Positions 56,640 through 64,000 of a DNA stretch of 64,000 nucleotides are shown here, in pieces. Position numbers and translations under genes: made by a program. The stretch comes from Betaproteobacteria bacterium (lineage in GTDB: Bacteria > Bacillota > UBA5301 > DYFA01): NCBI GenBank assembly GCA_050260635.1, contig JBLNCL010000030.1:72590-136589 (forward strand). The letters run 5' to 3'. Under the pieces are notes generated by a model. It made no database searches, was not told where the DNA came from, and saw only the letters and a program-made list of their open reading frames with translations. Numbering within the stretch: position 1 is the first letter of the stretch; the number at the start of each line of letters is the position of its first letter.

Positions 56640-56715
56640 GGCCCCATCGTCTAGTGGCCTAGGACACCGCCCTCTCACGGCGGCGACAGGGGTTCGAATC
56701 CCCTTGGGGCTACCA
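56640..56715 (+). tRNA. tRNA-Glu (anticodon CUC), 76 nt with encoded CCA
   Basis: GGCCCCATCGTCTAGTGGCCTAGGACACCGCCCTCTCACGGCGGCGACAGGGGTTCGAATCCCCTTGGGGCTACCA; anticodon loop CTCTCAC; classical Glu D-loop and T-arm. Confidence 0.9.
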
Positions 56716-56725
56716 ACGAGATTAC

Positions 56726-56762
56726 GCAGCGGGTTTGGCTTGGAAGGCCAAACCCGCTTTTG
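56726..56762. terminator. Rho-independent terminator hairpin (bidirectional candidate) between tRNA-Glu and hsdR
   Basis: GCGGGTTTGGC-ttggaa-GGCCAAACCCGC followed by TTTTG on the plus strand; A-run on the other side. Confidence 0.6.
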
Positions 56763-56783
56763 TAAACCCCCGAACAGGTGTTG

Positions 56784-60131: not shown

Positions 60132-61052
60132 CTATTTTGGTCTTGTTGAGTTCGCCTGCACGCTTCCCTTTTGCGGAGCTTTATCCAACTCGTGTTGCGG
60201 TTCGTACATCCAAAAGTTTATGGGGTTTCTGGGATCGGGAGTCCAGAGCCCACGCTTTTCTATCAGACTCACGCCGAGTCTGAGAGTCTTGCATAATCCA
60301 TCGAACTTGCAGAGAACTTCGAAGCGTTCGAGAGAGCTGCGAGATGGGCTAACCTCGTTCTGCTCGCCTTCGAACAAGCTCTGTTGATTCGCCCTTTGCC
60401 CCAGCCATTTTTGATACTCGACAAAACTGTCTCGCGAGAAAACGGCGAGCCCAGCGAACAGGTCAGCCAACTGCGCTAGCGGATGTTCGTGTGACAAGAC
60501 GGGCCGGACTTCCTCCAGCGCGAACTCTTGCCGCAGCCTGCGTCGAAATCCCCCTTCAGTGAACAGTGAATGCTCAGTCTCAAGCTCCACACTAGCGCTG
60601 CTCAGGCAATCCTGCACCGTGTCCCAATTCATGGCCGTCTGTTCATCTGGATGCAATCGCCATCTTGAGCCGTCCGGCCAGCGAACGCGAAGCACATTAC
60701 GGAACAGGTGATAGTGCATCCGTTGAAGGTTTGCTATGTCGTCTCTCTTACGAATCTTGTGACGGCTATCTTCGATGTCCCAAATCAGTACGTCCACGCG
60801 AATCTGCTTGGCGCATGCCTTGTCAACGGCAAACTTGCACATCTTTTCTGCCGCAAACCGTTCCTTGGCACCTCGCAGTTCCTTCCACTTAAACTCGCTC
60901 AATCCAGACTCCTGGAGGATGCTTCGAAGGTTGGCTTCGAGCTCATCGATAAAATCAACAGGTGCGGTGACAAGCCCAAGGCTCCGAAAGCGCCCAACGT
61001 TCCAATTCGACTCGTCGCTAAACCCAACATGAGTCACTCCACCGTCGCTCAT
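60132..61052 (-). CDS. DUF3800-like protein embedded in type I R-M operon (ATG overlaps hsdS stop as ATGA)
   Basis: N-terminal ...HVGFSDESNW... (the 'DES' motif characteristic of DUF3800). Start at MSDGGVTHV after a GGAGGAACGGGGG RBS. Lower GC than hsdR. Confidence 0.45.
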   Translation of the reverse strand: MSDGGVTHVGFSDESNWNVGRFRSLGLVTAPVDFIDELEANLRSILQESGLSEFKWKELRGAKERFAAEKMCKFAVDKACAKQIRVDVLIWDIEDSRHKIRKRDDIANLQRMHYHLFRNVLRVRWPDGSRWRLHPDEQTAMNWDTVQDCLSSASVELETEHSLFTEGGFRRRLRQEFALEEVRPVLSHEHPLAQLADLFAGLAVFSRDSFVEYQKWLGQRANQQSLFEGEQNEVSPSRSSLERFEVLCKFDGLCKTLRLGVSLIEKRGLWTPDPRNPINFWMYEPQHELDKAPQKGSVQANSTRPK

Positions 61053-62407
61053 AGCCCCCGTTCCTCCAAAAACTTCTCCGCATCTTTCACCCTTGTCTCG
61101 CCAGAGACGAGCTTGGGCAGCAGCGTATCGCGGGAGGCAGCAAGGGTACGGGATTCGGTCCGTAGAGCTAGCAGTTGCTTGACAAGCGGCGAGATTAGGC
61201 AGTCCGCTGCGGTCAGTGCAGGCGCGCCCGGAACCACGACCTTTGCATCTGTTAGGTGATGGCGTTGGATGTGGCCCATAGTAGTTGCTTTGTCCGCAGC
61301 GATGCTCCGGAATCCTAGCAAATGCTCGTGGATCCAAAAGTAGTAGAACCACTTTGGATAGTTTCGCGACGTCACCTTGAATAAGTGTTGATTCAGAGCG
61401 CCTGTTCCTCCCGCCCACAGAACACATTCGAGGGAACCTGACCAGGAGAAAAGCACATCTCCATCGGTCACAACATAGTCCACCGGCACCTCCGTGTTGC
61501 ACCGATCAGCCCCCTCGGTATCTCCTTTCCGAAGCTGGGCAATCTTAATGATTGGCAAAGTCGGACCGTTTCCAGGGGGGTATTTCTGAAGAGCCAGCCC
61601 ATTCAGAAAATCGGCGACCTCGTTCAGCGATTTCACCTCCCACCCTTCCGGAATCTCCCCCAGCTCCGACTCAACTAGGCGGTCTGGGAACAGGTCGTAA
61701 AGATCGGATGGCAGGCCCACCAAGCACTCACCGCGGCGCCAGCGACCCTCCATCTTGGCGCGCACGGGTTCGTAGTCGACGAACCACGACTTGAACAGCG
61801 CCCGCGCCATAGCCTCCAACGTCTCGTTCATTCGGCGATTCAGTTCGATCTTGGCATCCAGCGTCCCGAGGATGTGAGCGATGGCCCGCTGCTCAGGCAA
61901 CGAAGGAACCGGAAATGCGATTCTGGTTACAAAGTCCCATTTCGCACGTGGCATCTTCGTACCTTCGGAGCCGCGGGTGGCCGCTTCGATGAACTCAGGT
62001 GATGCCATCAGATAGTGAAGGTAACCTGCATCCACAGACTCTTTCGGTCGTACAACCCAGATGTCTGTTGAACATACGCCGTCAAAGGGTGCGCGTATAA
62101 CCTTGCGGAAGTACGGCCTCAGCTTTCCGAAAAGAATGTCCCCACGGCGGAACCGCAACTTTACGCTGGAAACGTCTTCAGACTGGCCGCAGCCAACAAG
62201 TGATAGAGTGCCTTCACCGATGTGCTCAAGGCCGATATACGGAGCGCCAGCCACCGAGCCAGGCAGCACGGTATCGTATACCAGCTCGGCACATTCTCCG
62301 AACGTTCTAGATACCCAGTCACCGGCCATACTGAAGTTCCTCCAATGGCTTGCAAGACATTTCATCCAACCGCATGGCGCTCGACCGTTGGAGCATCGCG
62401 ACTGCAT
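61049..62407 (-). CDS. hsdS: Type I restriction-modification specificity subunit (HsdS), two target-recognition domains
   Basis: Duplicated TRD architecture with conserved spacer repeats (...LPEQRAIAHILGTLDAKIELNRRMNETLEAMARALFKSWF... and ...LVKQLLALRTESRTLAASRDTLLPKLVSGE). Confidence 0.8.
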   Translation of the reverse strand: MQSRCSNGRAPCGWMKCLASHWRNFSMAGDWVSRTFGECAELVYDTVLPGSVAGAPYIGLEHIGEGTLSLVGCGQSEDVSSVKLRFRRGDILFGKLRPYFRKVIRAPFDGVCSTDIWVVRPKESVDAGYLHYLMASPEFIEAATRGSEGTKMPRAKWDFVTRIAFPVPSLPEQRAIAHILGTLDAKIELNRRMNETLEAMARALFKSWFVDYEPVRAKMEGRWRRGECLVGLPSDLYDLFPDRLVESELGEIPEGWEVKSLNEVADFLNGLALQKYPPGNGPTLPIIKIAQLRKGDTEGADRCNTEVPVDYVVTDGDVLFSWSGSLECVLWAGGTGALNQHLFKVTSRNYPKWFYYFWIHEHLLGFRSIAADKATTMGHIQRHHLTDAKVVVPGAPALTAADCLISPLVKQLLALRTESRTLAASRDTLLPKLVSGETRVKDAEKFLEERGL

Positions 62408-62442
62408 TACGCGCGGTAATACAATAACAGCGAGCGGTTATC

Positions 62443-64000
62443 TTATCCGCTCCGCGCATACCAGGCTCCTTTCTTGGTTCCGTGCCGGACGAGCTTGCCT
62501 TCCTGGGTCAGCCGCGTGAGCAGCCGGTAGGCTTGATCCGGAGAGAAGCAGCACAACTCCGCCGCCTCCCGGCGGGTGATGCGCCCGTGCTTCTCCACGT
62601 ACTGCAGCACCATCTGCTCCTGTTGCAGCGGCTCGAAGCCGCGCTGGCGCACGTAGGCAGCCTTGTCGCCAAGTCGCCGGTACGTTGCGGCGGAGAGGTG
62701 CCAAGCGCGGCCTTTCTTCTCCCCCCGGGCTTCCACTAGCCCCGCTTCCACCAAGCGGTTGAGCACCGCACGGGCTTCGTCGGCCGGTTTCTGGATTAGC
62801 CGGGCGGCCTCGTCGGTGGTGATTGCGCGTTCCTGCCAGAGGGCGTTGAGCACGAGCAACTCGTCCAACCGCAAGTTTCGCCCGGCCTGCGCCTCTTCTG
62901 CCACCAGGCGCACGAAGTCCAAGTTGGCCTGGCCGCCGGGAAGCACCAGAACGACCCCCGTCGCGTCGCTCCGCGCGTAGGAAGGGGCAGGGCGGCCGTT
63001 GCGCAACTGCTCGTAGAAGATGGTGTCGATCCCGCGGGCGGTGCGCTCGACGATGCCAGCGCGCTTGAAGGCGTCGGCAAGCAACGGGTTGCGCGGCCGC
63101 GGCGCGGTGACCAGTAGGTTGTCCAGGCGCACTCCTTCAGGAAAGCCGCCTGGATTGGAAATCTCGAGGCGGTTGTCGTGCCACTGGATGTGGACCGCCC
63201 CGAGTCGGGTGTAGTCCCGATGGATCAAGGCGTTAGCCACGCCCTCGCGGAAGGCGGCCGGTGGGTAGTCAGGCACGCCGATGCGCAGCATGCCTACAAG
63301 CATCTCGTGCTCCCGGTTACGGGCCCGGAAACGAGCCTCGATCTCCTCCATCACGCGCAAGAGAGGCCAGCGGAAGAAGTCGTTGACCTCCACCGCCTGG
63401 CCACGCAAGACCTGGAAGGCAACTTCGTGCGCCGGCAGGAGCCAGCGCAGCGCCTCCTCCCTGCCGAAGAGCAGGAGCCCGAGCACCCGCACGGCTGTCA
63501 CGTGGCCGTTGGCCTCGACGGCACCCAGGGCCTTGGCTAGCTCAAGGTCGGACAGATCCAGCAGAGTCTCGTCACTACGCCCGCGCCGTTCGCGGATGCT
63601 GCGGCGCAACCGCTCGAATTCGCGCGGGTCAAGGTCTTCCCAGCGCGCTTCCGGGACGACCAAGGTGGAATAGTCGAGGGCGCCGCGATCGGCCTGGTGG
63701 GCCTGCATTTCATGAAAATGCATGGGCACGCACGCCGGCCGTCCGTCGCCGCCAACGATGCGGCGCAGGTAGCGCCCGTCGGCTGTCCCGACCGGGGTGC
63801 GGCTGGGCGGCACTTCGATGGCCAGCACCTGCTTGCCCTCGATCGGAACGAGGTACACGCACACAGTCAGCGATGGGCGCGTGCGGCTGGAAATCATGGC
63901 CGTCAGCCGGGCCGGGTCGGTGTGCCCGCCTTCGTGGCGGGGGCGCACCCCCGTTATGCGGCCGCCGTCCTCGACGCCGATCAACAGCCAAGCCGGCTCA
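62443..64000 (-). CDS. Schlafen/AlbA_2 + HATPase_c_4-type putative DNA-binding regulator ('RecG-like' R-M associated protein), N-terminus beyond window
   Basis: IGVEDGGRITGV (AlbA_2/Schlafen core) at the N-terminal end, central GHKL-like segment (ANALIHRDY), C-terminal winged-helix regions. The reading frame continues to the window edge. Confidence 0.55.
   Translation of the reverse strand, partial: EPAWLLIGVEDGGRITGVRPRHEGGHTDPARLTAMISSRTRPSLTVCVYLVPIEGKQVLAIEVPPSRTPVGTADGRYLRRIVGGDGRPACVPMHFHEMQAHQADRGALDYSTLVVPEARWEDLDPREFERLRRSIRERRGRSDETLLDLSDLELAKALGAVEANGHVTAVRVLGLLLFGREEALRWLLPAHEVAFQVLRGQAVEVNDFFRWPLLRVMEEIEARFRARNREHEMLVGMLRIGVPDYPPAAFREGVANALIHRDYTRLGAVHIQWHDNRLEISNPGGFPEGVRLDNLLVTAPRPRNPLLADAFKRAGIVERTARGIDTIFYEQLRNGRPAPSYARSDATGVVLVLPGGQANLDFVRLVAEEAQAGRNLRLDELLVLNALWQERAITTDEAARLIQKPADEARAVLNRLVEAGLVEARGEKKGRAWHLSAATYRRLGDKAAYVRQRGFEPLQQEQMVLQYVEKHGRITRREAAELCCFSPDQAYRLLTRLTQEGKLVRHGTKKGAWYARSG

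Follow-up and report, generated by a model that had tools for sequence, protein, structure and literature searches.

Type I restriction-modification (R-M) operons are increasingly viewed as scaffolds for a second layer of defence, examples being PrrC, Ronin and TgvAB, and a 64,000-nucleotide (nt) stretch of contig JBLNCL010000030.1 (assembly GCA_050260635.1; hereafter the window) adds a clean comparative case, namely a type I operon in which a DUF3800-family gene lies between hsdS and hsdR. Among the systems already described, the closest in layout is the anticodon nuclease PrrC, which is embedded in the type IC EcoprrI locus in the order hsdM-hsdS-prrC-hsdR (PMC12707154) and is found almost exclusively in such an embedded state (bioRxiv 10.1101/2024.01.29.577857; PMC12707154). 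For Ronin (HsdMS plus RonA), the toxicity of RonA is suppressed by co-expression of HsdMS, and caging by HsdMS has been proposed (bioRxiv 10.1101/2023.04.06.535777). TgvAB and RloA-H are defence genes inserted in type I operons and expressed from them (PMC11411939; bioRxiv 10.1101/2024.01.29.577857). DUF3800 proteins, with their DE and QxxD motifs and resemblance to RNase H2, have been described for type VII retrons (PMC7736814), and likewise in Cas12a2/a3 loci (PMC10910872; bioRxiv 10.64898/2026.01.16.699850) and in the 2025 CRISPR classification (PMC12669027), while other DUF3800 families have been linked to structured RNAs (PMC5737381). Both the embedding of defence genes in type I operons and the use of DUF3800 as an RNase H-fold immune accessory nuclease are thus already known. 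What we did not find in the literature searched is the near-obligate association, reported below, of one DUF3800 subfamily with the hsdS/hsdR slot: none of the papers on DUF3800 that were read ties it to R-M, and the preprint of Payne et al. (bioRxiv 10.1101/2024.01.29.577857) does not mention DUF3800 in its main text or in the supplementary files searched.

Compared with these systems, the locus shares with PrrC a nuclease gene (here a predicted one) in the hsdS/hsdR slot of a type I operon, and PrrC supplies a possible model of an R-M-gated latent effector, but PrrC combines ABC-ATPase-like and anticodon nuclease domains, whereas the DUF3800 product has a single RNase H2-fold domain and no sequence relationship to PrrC; judged by its sequence, it is not a member of the PrrC family and is only positionally analogous. 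As in Ronin, the candidate effector is tightly linked to hsdS and hsdM, and hsdR is disrupted in some related loci; RonA, however, is a membrane peptide of 61 amino acids (aa) in systems that usually lack hsdR, whereas the protein here is a soluble predicted nuclease of 306 aa and hsdR is intact in the window. The “guilt by embedding” of TgvAB and RloA-H applies insofar as the same slot carries GmrSD-like, OLD, Abi_C, SIR2 and PDDEXK genes in relatives, but the DUF3800 subfamily keeps to its one slot in one lineage with unusual fidelity. With the DUF3800 proteins of type VII retrons and of Cas12a2/a3 and VI-F systems (PMC7736814, PMC10910872, PMC12669027), the product shares the Pfam family, the DE and QxxD motifs, the RNase H2-like fold and the putative role of an add-on nuclease to an immune system. 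It differs from them in its type I R-M partner, in having neither a reverse transcriptase fusion nor a TPR domain, in a C-terminal extension of its own, and in that the structured RNA associated with them was not found here by Rfam (positions 56000-64000). Finally, EcoR124I (type IC) has the same subunit set and domain order, and its HsdR is the nearest, and only, solved relative of the window HsdR by sequence (E 2e-32), but the similarity is low and confined to the motor region.

A type I operon with a DUF3800 gene between hsdS and hsdR

An earlier note, made from the letters of this stretch, had listed hsdR, a DUF3800 gene, hsdS and an AlbA_2 gene in that order on the minus strand, and domain searches confirmed all four identities along with strand and order (Table 1). 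HsdR carries the Pfam domains HSDR_N, SWI2_SNF2, ResIII, T1R_D3-like and T1RH-like_C, i.e., the N-terminal nuclease domain, SF2 motor and C-terminal domain of a type I HsdR, and scores 566 bits against TIGR00348 (cut-off 285) and 1089 bits against PADLOC REase_I. HsdS shows two Methylase_S stretches, corresponding to the two target-recognition domains of a type I specificity subunit, and matches PADLOC Specificity_I over residues 51-423 (299 bits). The longest open reading frame (ORF) of hsdS begins at 62407, upstream of the start matched by homologues; we use the ATG at 62329, which agrees with these homologues and with a 426-aa gene call on the identical Logan contig L001.

These genes are co-directional and tightly packed. 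They form a single polycistronic type I R-M operon with the predicted gene order hsdM (off-window) - AlbA_2 gene - hsdS - DUF3800 gene - hsdR, ending convergently against tRNA-Glu and its terminator, and the operon is a member of a widely transferred R-M lineage. As read from domain matches and gene layout, the gene identities and the operon structure appear practically certain.

Table 1. Features of the operon and its edge in the window, with the corresponding features of related loci (L numbers). Positions without an L number are those of the window; “duplicated handles” are copies of the hsdS tail, some of them joined to the hsdR head.
Feature	Coordinates	Strand	Product or length	Basis or remark
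hsdR, type I restriction endonuclease/translocase subunit	56784-59939	-	1051 aa	Pfam, TIGR00348, PADLOC
Spacer, DUF3800 stop to hsdR start	59940-60131	-	192 nt	specific to this window
DUF3800-family gene	60132-61052	-	306 aa, predicted RNase H2-fold nuclease	Pfam PF12686
ATGA overlap, hsdS stop TGA / DUF3800 start ATG	61049-61052	-		read directly from sequence
hsdS, specificity subunit	61049-62329	-	426 aa, two target-recognition domains	Pfam Methylase_S, PADLOC
AlbA_2/HATPase_c_4/double winged helix-turn-helix gene	62443 to >64000	-	>518 aa	5' end beyond window
tRNA-Glu (anticodon CTC)	56640-56715	+		ARAGORN; Rfam tRNA 61.3 bits, E 1e-11
Intrinsic terminator of tRNA-Glu	56728-56763	+		sequence reading and RNA folding
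Duplicated handles	L052:2357-2623, 4271-4510; L061:982-1248, 2818-3255, 4979-5068			
Further loci with duplicated handles	L022, L024, L025, L036, L037, L039, L055, L069, L082, L084, L089			
tRNAs flanking related operons	L005:181-257; L006:5389-5476 and 20113-20203; L077:3389-3476			

Near-exclusive occupation of one slot

At E <= 0.001, a search with the DUF3800 product gives 743 homologues, of which the best 120 are 59-68% identical and ~297 aa long, with hosts that include Chloroflexota, Thermosynechococcus, Meiothermus, Limisphaera, Calditrichota, Desulfosoma, Armatimonadota and Acidobacteriota. A profile search against 1.84 billion cluster representatives returned 783 clusters (447 at E <= 1e-30), and most of the 150 clusters listed are full-length matches of roughly 300 aa. 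Gene context was then read from 92 related loci (12 from genomes and 80 from metagenomes), in which R-M genes were mapped by tblastn, with context counts limited to loci offering at least 400 nt of flank (n = 85). Type I genes are present in 75 of these 85 loci; hsdS lies upstream of DUF3800 in 59/69 and hsdR downstream in 58/73. In the window, as in the majority of the 92 loci, the gene is found between hsdS and hsdR, the guardian position. Embedding in a type I operon follows identity to the window protein, being seen for 63/65 copies at least 58% identical, for 12/16 at 50-58% and for 0/4 below 50%. The DUF3800 subfamily is almost dedicated to the hsdS/hsdR slot of one R-M lineage. A single RNase H-like nuclease subfamily, spread over hundreds of genomic and metagenomic loci (several of them from thermophiles) in many phyla, occurs almost only there.

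The lineage itself can do without the gene. No plasmid among the 72,556 searched carries this DUF3800 subfamily, and 231 plasmid records hold HsdR homologues that span at least 80% of the query (the best listed being 50-57% identical), from which we conclude that DUF3800 is optional for the R-M lineage. More distant relatives of the DUF3800 product (35-42% identical) were seen in other settings: at L096 (Thermomicrobium roseum megaplasmid, 5974-6903) beside the anti-phage genes DUF1156, DUF499 and DUF3780, at L098 (pFZ1, 2101-2955) among non-R-M genes of a small Methanothermobacter plasmid, and at L099 (pRMAS01, 5061-5831) directly after a 956-aa N6 DNA methylase. These settings suggest a wider family that is linked to defence or to plasmids and not tied to type I systems, and the association with defence islands that had been claimed for both the DUF3800 and the AlbA_2 genes is correct. 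A viral origin of the DUF3800 gene was also considered and rejected: in IMG/VR, the closest relative found is 26% identical and lies on a single contig.

A predicted RNase H2-fold nuclease

The match of the DUF3800 product to PF12686 is marginal (24.9 bits, cut-off 21, E 3.6e-5); many of its homologues carry a precomputed PF12686 match and the NCBI name “DUF3800 domain-containing protein”. The N-terminal DE and C-terminal QxxD motifs of the family are both present: D13-E14, at the end of strand 1, and Q194-L-A-D197 (Q194xxD197), in helix 191-208, are invariant across 46 sequences, as is D92 at the end of strand 85-92. The predicted fold is RNase H2-like, with RNases H2 and H3 rather than integrases as the best structural matches, and the family profile gave no match when run against PDB sequences. 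Altogether 54 residues are invariant in the family and conserved across phyla, and a conserved C-terminal extension (residues ~210-295), specific to the wider family of this product, contributes invariants that include G268, T271, P274, N279, F280, W281 and Y283. From this conservation, D13-E14, D92 and Q194xxD197 would make up a complete acidic active-site set with an inferred spatial geometry, and the DUF3800 product is rather likely to be an active nuclease.

The hsdS tail, codon overlap and base composition

The ATGA by which the hsdS stop overlaps the DUF3800 start had been pointed out before and is present in the sequence, with GGAGGA 10 nt upstream inside the hsdS tail. Of 79 related loci, 55 show this 4-nt overlap (47 as ATGA, 8 as GTGA), and 44 of these 55 have a motif resembling a Shine-Dalgarno (SD) sequence within the last hsdS codons. 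Since the overlap is kept across loci, translational coupling is plausible and conserved. The earlier note took the overlap as a sign that DUF3800 is a stoichiometric partner of HsdS and not a hitch-hiker, and this was not supported. In L004, L007 and L008, other genes follow hsdS with a -4 overlap (a 279-aa gene without Pfam match, a DUF4357 gene and an Abi_C gene), and because unrelated cargo uses the same overlap, the latter is a property of the conserved hsdS tail, not of DUF3800.

A reading in which the protein is an accessory subunit integral to the enzyme, or a regulator, produced at a constant ratio to HsdS and required for restriction, restriction alleviation or hsdR control (e.g., through removal of R-loops ahead of the translocating HsdR, or processing of the operon mRNA), would fit with the ATGA and hsdS-tail SD arrangement kept in 55/79 loci, with the very high cross-phylum conservation of the protein (54 invariant residues) and with the link of other DUF3800 families to structured RNAs (PMC5737381). 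We nevertheless consider it very improbable: beyond the unrelated cargo genes served by the same overlap, other cargo lies between hsdS and DUF3800 in L004, L007, L008 and L048 and several more loci have gaps >20 nt, the HsdR homologues on all 231 plasmid records stand without the gene, and Rfam, run at a permissive threshold over 56000-64000 for DUF3800-associated structured RNAs, gave the tRNA alone. Canonical type I enzymes need only HsdR2M2S1, which likewise counts against an integral subunit. The optional status of the gene in its lineage opposes the claim of a stoichiometric partner as well, as does the fact that DUF3800 tracks the divergence of HsdR far less than HsdM does: in comparisons of pairwise identities, the Mantel r is 0.82 for HsdM vs HsdR, and 0.23 (n = 32) to 0.54 (n = 13) for DUF3800 vs HsdR.

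The guanine-plus-cytosine (GC) fraction of the window is 0.67-0.73 upstream, 0.62-0.65 in hsdR, 0.54-0.56 in DUF3800 and hsdS and 0.66-0.69 in the AlbA_2 gene. The fall in GC said to follow tRNA-Glu is seen in the lower values of hsdR, but there is no immediate collapse, and the deep drop is limited to DUF3800 and hsdS (about 59750-62500). Among related loci, DUF3800 is lower in GC than the adjacent hsdR in 38/38 cases (e.g., L004, L005, L008, L076; mean 0.52 vs 0.62), regardless of host GC, with hsdS intermediate between the two. Because the same offset is found in all 38 loci tested, the low-GC patch is a family trait, and a recent local swap as the source of the low-GC hsdS-DUF3800 segment was rejected. 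For annotation, this means that neither the ATGA overlap nor the low GC should be read as pointing to a novel R-M subunit or a recent insertion at this place; both belong to the slot and the cargo family.

At the other end of the gene, most relatives have a DUF3800 stop that overlaps the hsdR start or lies right beside it (offsets -4, -1, -7 or +2), and the 192-nt spacer is peculiar to the window. It includes an AGGAG SD motif before the hsdR ATG. We looked in this spacer for matches in related loci, for hsdS-tail or hsdR-head remnants and for promoter-like or terminator-like sites on the transcribed strand, and found none of these; its RNA fold is insignificant (z -0.57).

Exchangeable cargo and duplicated handles

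In related operons, the hsdS/hsdR slot is occupied by Abi_C, DUF4357, GmrSD_N, OLD ATPase-TOPRIM and AAA_21+DUF4276 genes, and further by HTH-Peptidase_M78, RhuM/Fic, DUF3644 and Y1-transposase-like genes, while plasmid operons with an HsdR 50-54% identical have a SIR2 or PDDEXK gene directly before hsdR (L100, L101). On Ketogulonicigenium plasmid p3 (L100), the SIR2-family gene lies in the slot at 5424-6449; on the Pseudomonas plasmid (L101), the PDDEXK gene (5452-6504) ends in a 4-nt overlap of its stop with the hsdR start, and neither hsdM nor hsdS is annotated upstream of it. The shared overlap, the other slot occupants, the absence of the subfamily from plasmids, the weak Mantel correlation and the GC offset together speak for DUF3800 as exchangeable defence cargo and against a core restriction subunit, a view that we regard as quite probable. 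In this lineage, the hsdM/hsdS and hsdS/hsdR junctions would then both serve as slots for exchangeable defence cargo.

A possible route for such exchange is visible in ~13 loci, where a copy of the last ~30 hsdS codons (...ALRDALLPKLIxGEIRVKDAERFLKERGL, then the stop) recurs after DUF3800 and after each further gene. The stop of the hsdS-tail copy overlaps the next start in L052, L055 and L061, and in L024 the next start comes 27 nt later. Some copies are joined to the initial 14 or 56 hsdR codons (e.g., L052 4271-4510, L061 2818-3255), with the fusion joints at AAL and LRDAL microhomologies common to the hsdR N-terminus and the hsdS tail. These duplicated hsdS-tail/hsdR-head joints look like the products of integrase-free cargo capture and stacking by recombination, and suggest a simple route by which R-M operons accumulate cargo.

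The precision of the junction could also be the mark of a selfish site-specific element, i.e., an RNase H-fold nuclease homing into the hsdS-tail/hsdR-head junction without benefit to the host. In many loci the gene indeed fits in without a spare nucleotide, overlapping its neighbours on either side, the GC lies ~10 points under the flanks in 38 loci, and the spread over many phyla is weakly coupled to the R-M core. We judge this very improbable all the same: the closest structures are those of RNases H2 and H3 and not of integrases, terminal repeats and target duplications are absent, and non-nuclease cargo shares both the junction and the duplicated handles, for which reason ordinary recombination suffices. 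In addition, the gene is under strong purifying selection across the whole 300 aa, which argues for a function at the level of the host.

A candidate second-layer effector

The best overall explanation, to which we give slightly better than an even chance, is that of an R-M operon with exchangeable cargo in which DUF3800 is a second-layer effector. The gene would be co-transcribed with the R-M genes, with translation starting from the SD motif and ATGA in the hsdS 3' tail, and its product would most likely act as an effector nuclease rather than as a restriction subunit. By analogy with PrrC and Ronin, it is tempting to speculate that it is a guardian gated by the R-M complex: the HsdM/HsdS(/HsdR) complex would hold the nuclease in an inactive state, and a phage anti-restriction protein that disables the complex would set the nuclease free. 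We put this forward as our preferred but tentative mechanism, and hold as more doubtful still its extended form, in which the guardian docks on the HsdM/HsdS core and the hsdS-tail/hsdR-head handles, integrase-free, make the operon a cargo platform that is integron-like in outcome. If the DUF3800 product is R-M-gated, it would represent a new guardian effector built on a fold already recruited by retrons and Cas12/Cas13 systems, and this would hint at a common DUF3800 nuclease action downstream of different sensors.

The state of hsdR in relatives is of interest here. It is intact in 15 of 20 assessable related loci, and DUF3800 is full-length in L006, L007, L034 and L077 despite an interrupted, frameshifted or truncated hsdR. 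Deletion, interruption (by a ~5.3-kilobase insertion) or frameshift of hsdR was noted in L003 (11639-13536), L006 (12438-20058), L077, L007 (15931-19042) and L034; the hsdR-disrupted operons retain hsdM, hsdS and a full-length DUF3800, a composition reminiscent of the hsdR-less Ronin.

Several observations weigh against a second-layer effector tied to the R-M complex. The DUF3800 product has no PrrC domain of any kind (Pfam, NCBIfam, PADLOC); PADLOC 2.0 returned for it PDC-M04A only, at 20.9 bits and with no stretch passing alone, and NCBIfam and PHROGs gave zero matches. The confidence of the structural model (predicted local distance difference test, pLDDT) is only 56-64 over residues 1-20, a segment that includes D13 and E14. 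The hsdM of the locus itself would lie beyond the window end, its presence being deduced from relatives. Relatives at or below ~57% identity are solitary, without R-M genes and among housekeeping or mobile-element genes (L009, L010, L012, L083, L092), and others are found on the Methanothermobacter plasmids pFZ1 and pFV1. The solitary relatives imply that the fold works or persists without a type I partner, and so fit an autonomous module equally well.

Such a module would be an embedded defence gene of the TgvAB or BrxU kind, which borrows the promoter, ribosome-binding site and mobility of the operon with no physical or regulatory link to HsdMSR, and whose targets might be RNA-DNA hybrids or replication intermediates of phage. 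Besides the solitary relatives, the many unrelated self-contained defence genes in the same slot and the weak co-divergence of DUF3800 with hsdR speak for it, as does TgvAB, which protects without HsdR activity from within a type I operon of V. cholerae (PMC11411939). A gene of this kind is expected in many defence-island contexts, yet for copies with 58% identity or more, embedding in one R-M lineage and at one position is the rule (63/65 cases); DUF3800 is usually the first gene after hsdS, and embedding of this sort is what Payne et al. (bioRxiv 10.1101/2024.01.29.577857) point to in PrrC. We see full autonomy as possible but rather unlikely, on a par with the guardian.

The AlbA_2 gene and hsdM

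The product of the AlbA_2 gene, at the far end of the window, matches HATPase_c_4 (63.8 bits, cut-off 26) and SLFN_AlbA_2 (34 bits, cut-off 25.3), the latter from profile position 34 onwards, the N-terminus being cut by the window end; it also matches phrog_12156 (E 1.5e-42). The word “ATPase”, as applied to this gene, is the title of a Pfam domain matched by its sequence. HTH_29, HTH_24 and MarR_2 remain below threshold in the window copy, whereas in the full-length relative at L021:2993-4690 (565 aa, 77% identical) HTH_IclR, HTH_24, MarR_2 and TrmB are all above cut-off, and the full architecture of AlbA_2, HATPase_c_4 and C-terminal winged helix-turn-helix, as in COG2865-like proteins, is seen. 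Given the start of the match at position 34 and the 565 aa of the L021 homologue, some 47 N-terminal codons probably lie beyond the window.

As cargo, the gene is rare and variable: 2 of the 92 related loci carry it. In both (L019 and L021), the homologues are 77-78% identical and start directly at the hsdM stop, upstream of hsdS-DUF3800-hsdR, with a Fic gene between AlbA_2 and hsdS in L021. Because these homologues directly follow hsdM, an hsdM of the same operon is likely to lie just beyond ~64140; hsdM is also upstream in four other related operons (L003, L004, L005, L008). Elsewhere, the hsdM/hsdS slot holds Fic or other genes or is empty. The AlbA_2, HATPase_c_4 and winged helix-turn-helix protein in this slot (Schlafen-type) may act either as a nucleic-acid sensor or as a regulator.

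tRNA-Glu and the edge of the locus

Transcription of hsdR converges with that of tRNA-Glu, which forms the chromosomal boundary of the R-M locus: the latter lies directly 3' of the tRNA gene, with 68 nt between the hsdR stop and the tRNA-Glu 3' end. The intervening terminator consists of a near-perfect 14-bp hairpin (56728-56758) followed by TTTTGT, and 21 nt separate it from the hsdR stop codon. A simple consensus terminator scan did not list it, and its assignment is based on reading and folding, the hairpin being strongly stable (-26.5 kcal/mol, z -4.26, with 0/200 shuffles folding as well). Taken together, ARAGORN, Rfam and the hairpin fold bear out the presence of a tRNA-Glu and terminator at the edge of the locus, as had been stated beforehand.

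An integrated island at tRNA-Glu is plausible, and its far border would fall beyond the window. Within 56600-64000, we found no integrase ORF and no direct repeat of the tRNA-Glu 3' end, the repeats there being short chance matches. A tRNA stands beside the R-M operon in 3 of 17 long related loci, with differing types (Asn, Tyr, Ser), and the other 14 are without one. The arrangement in L006, where a tRNA-Ser converges on the hsdR end, is that of the window.

On the other side of tRNA-Glu, a 2908-aa ORF with host-like GC (47883-56609, plus strand) stops 31 nt short of the tRNA gene and carries Glycoamylase, GH94 supersandwich and GH94 catalytic domains, as in a cyclic beta-1,2-glucan synthase-like protein. 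A sigma-70-like promoter (TTGACC-17-TATACT, with an extended -10 TG) at 56598-56626 overlaps the 3' end of this ORF, just upstream of tRNA-Glu. Another tRNA gene of the window, tRNA-Leu (CAA), lies at 14515-14602 on the minus strand.

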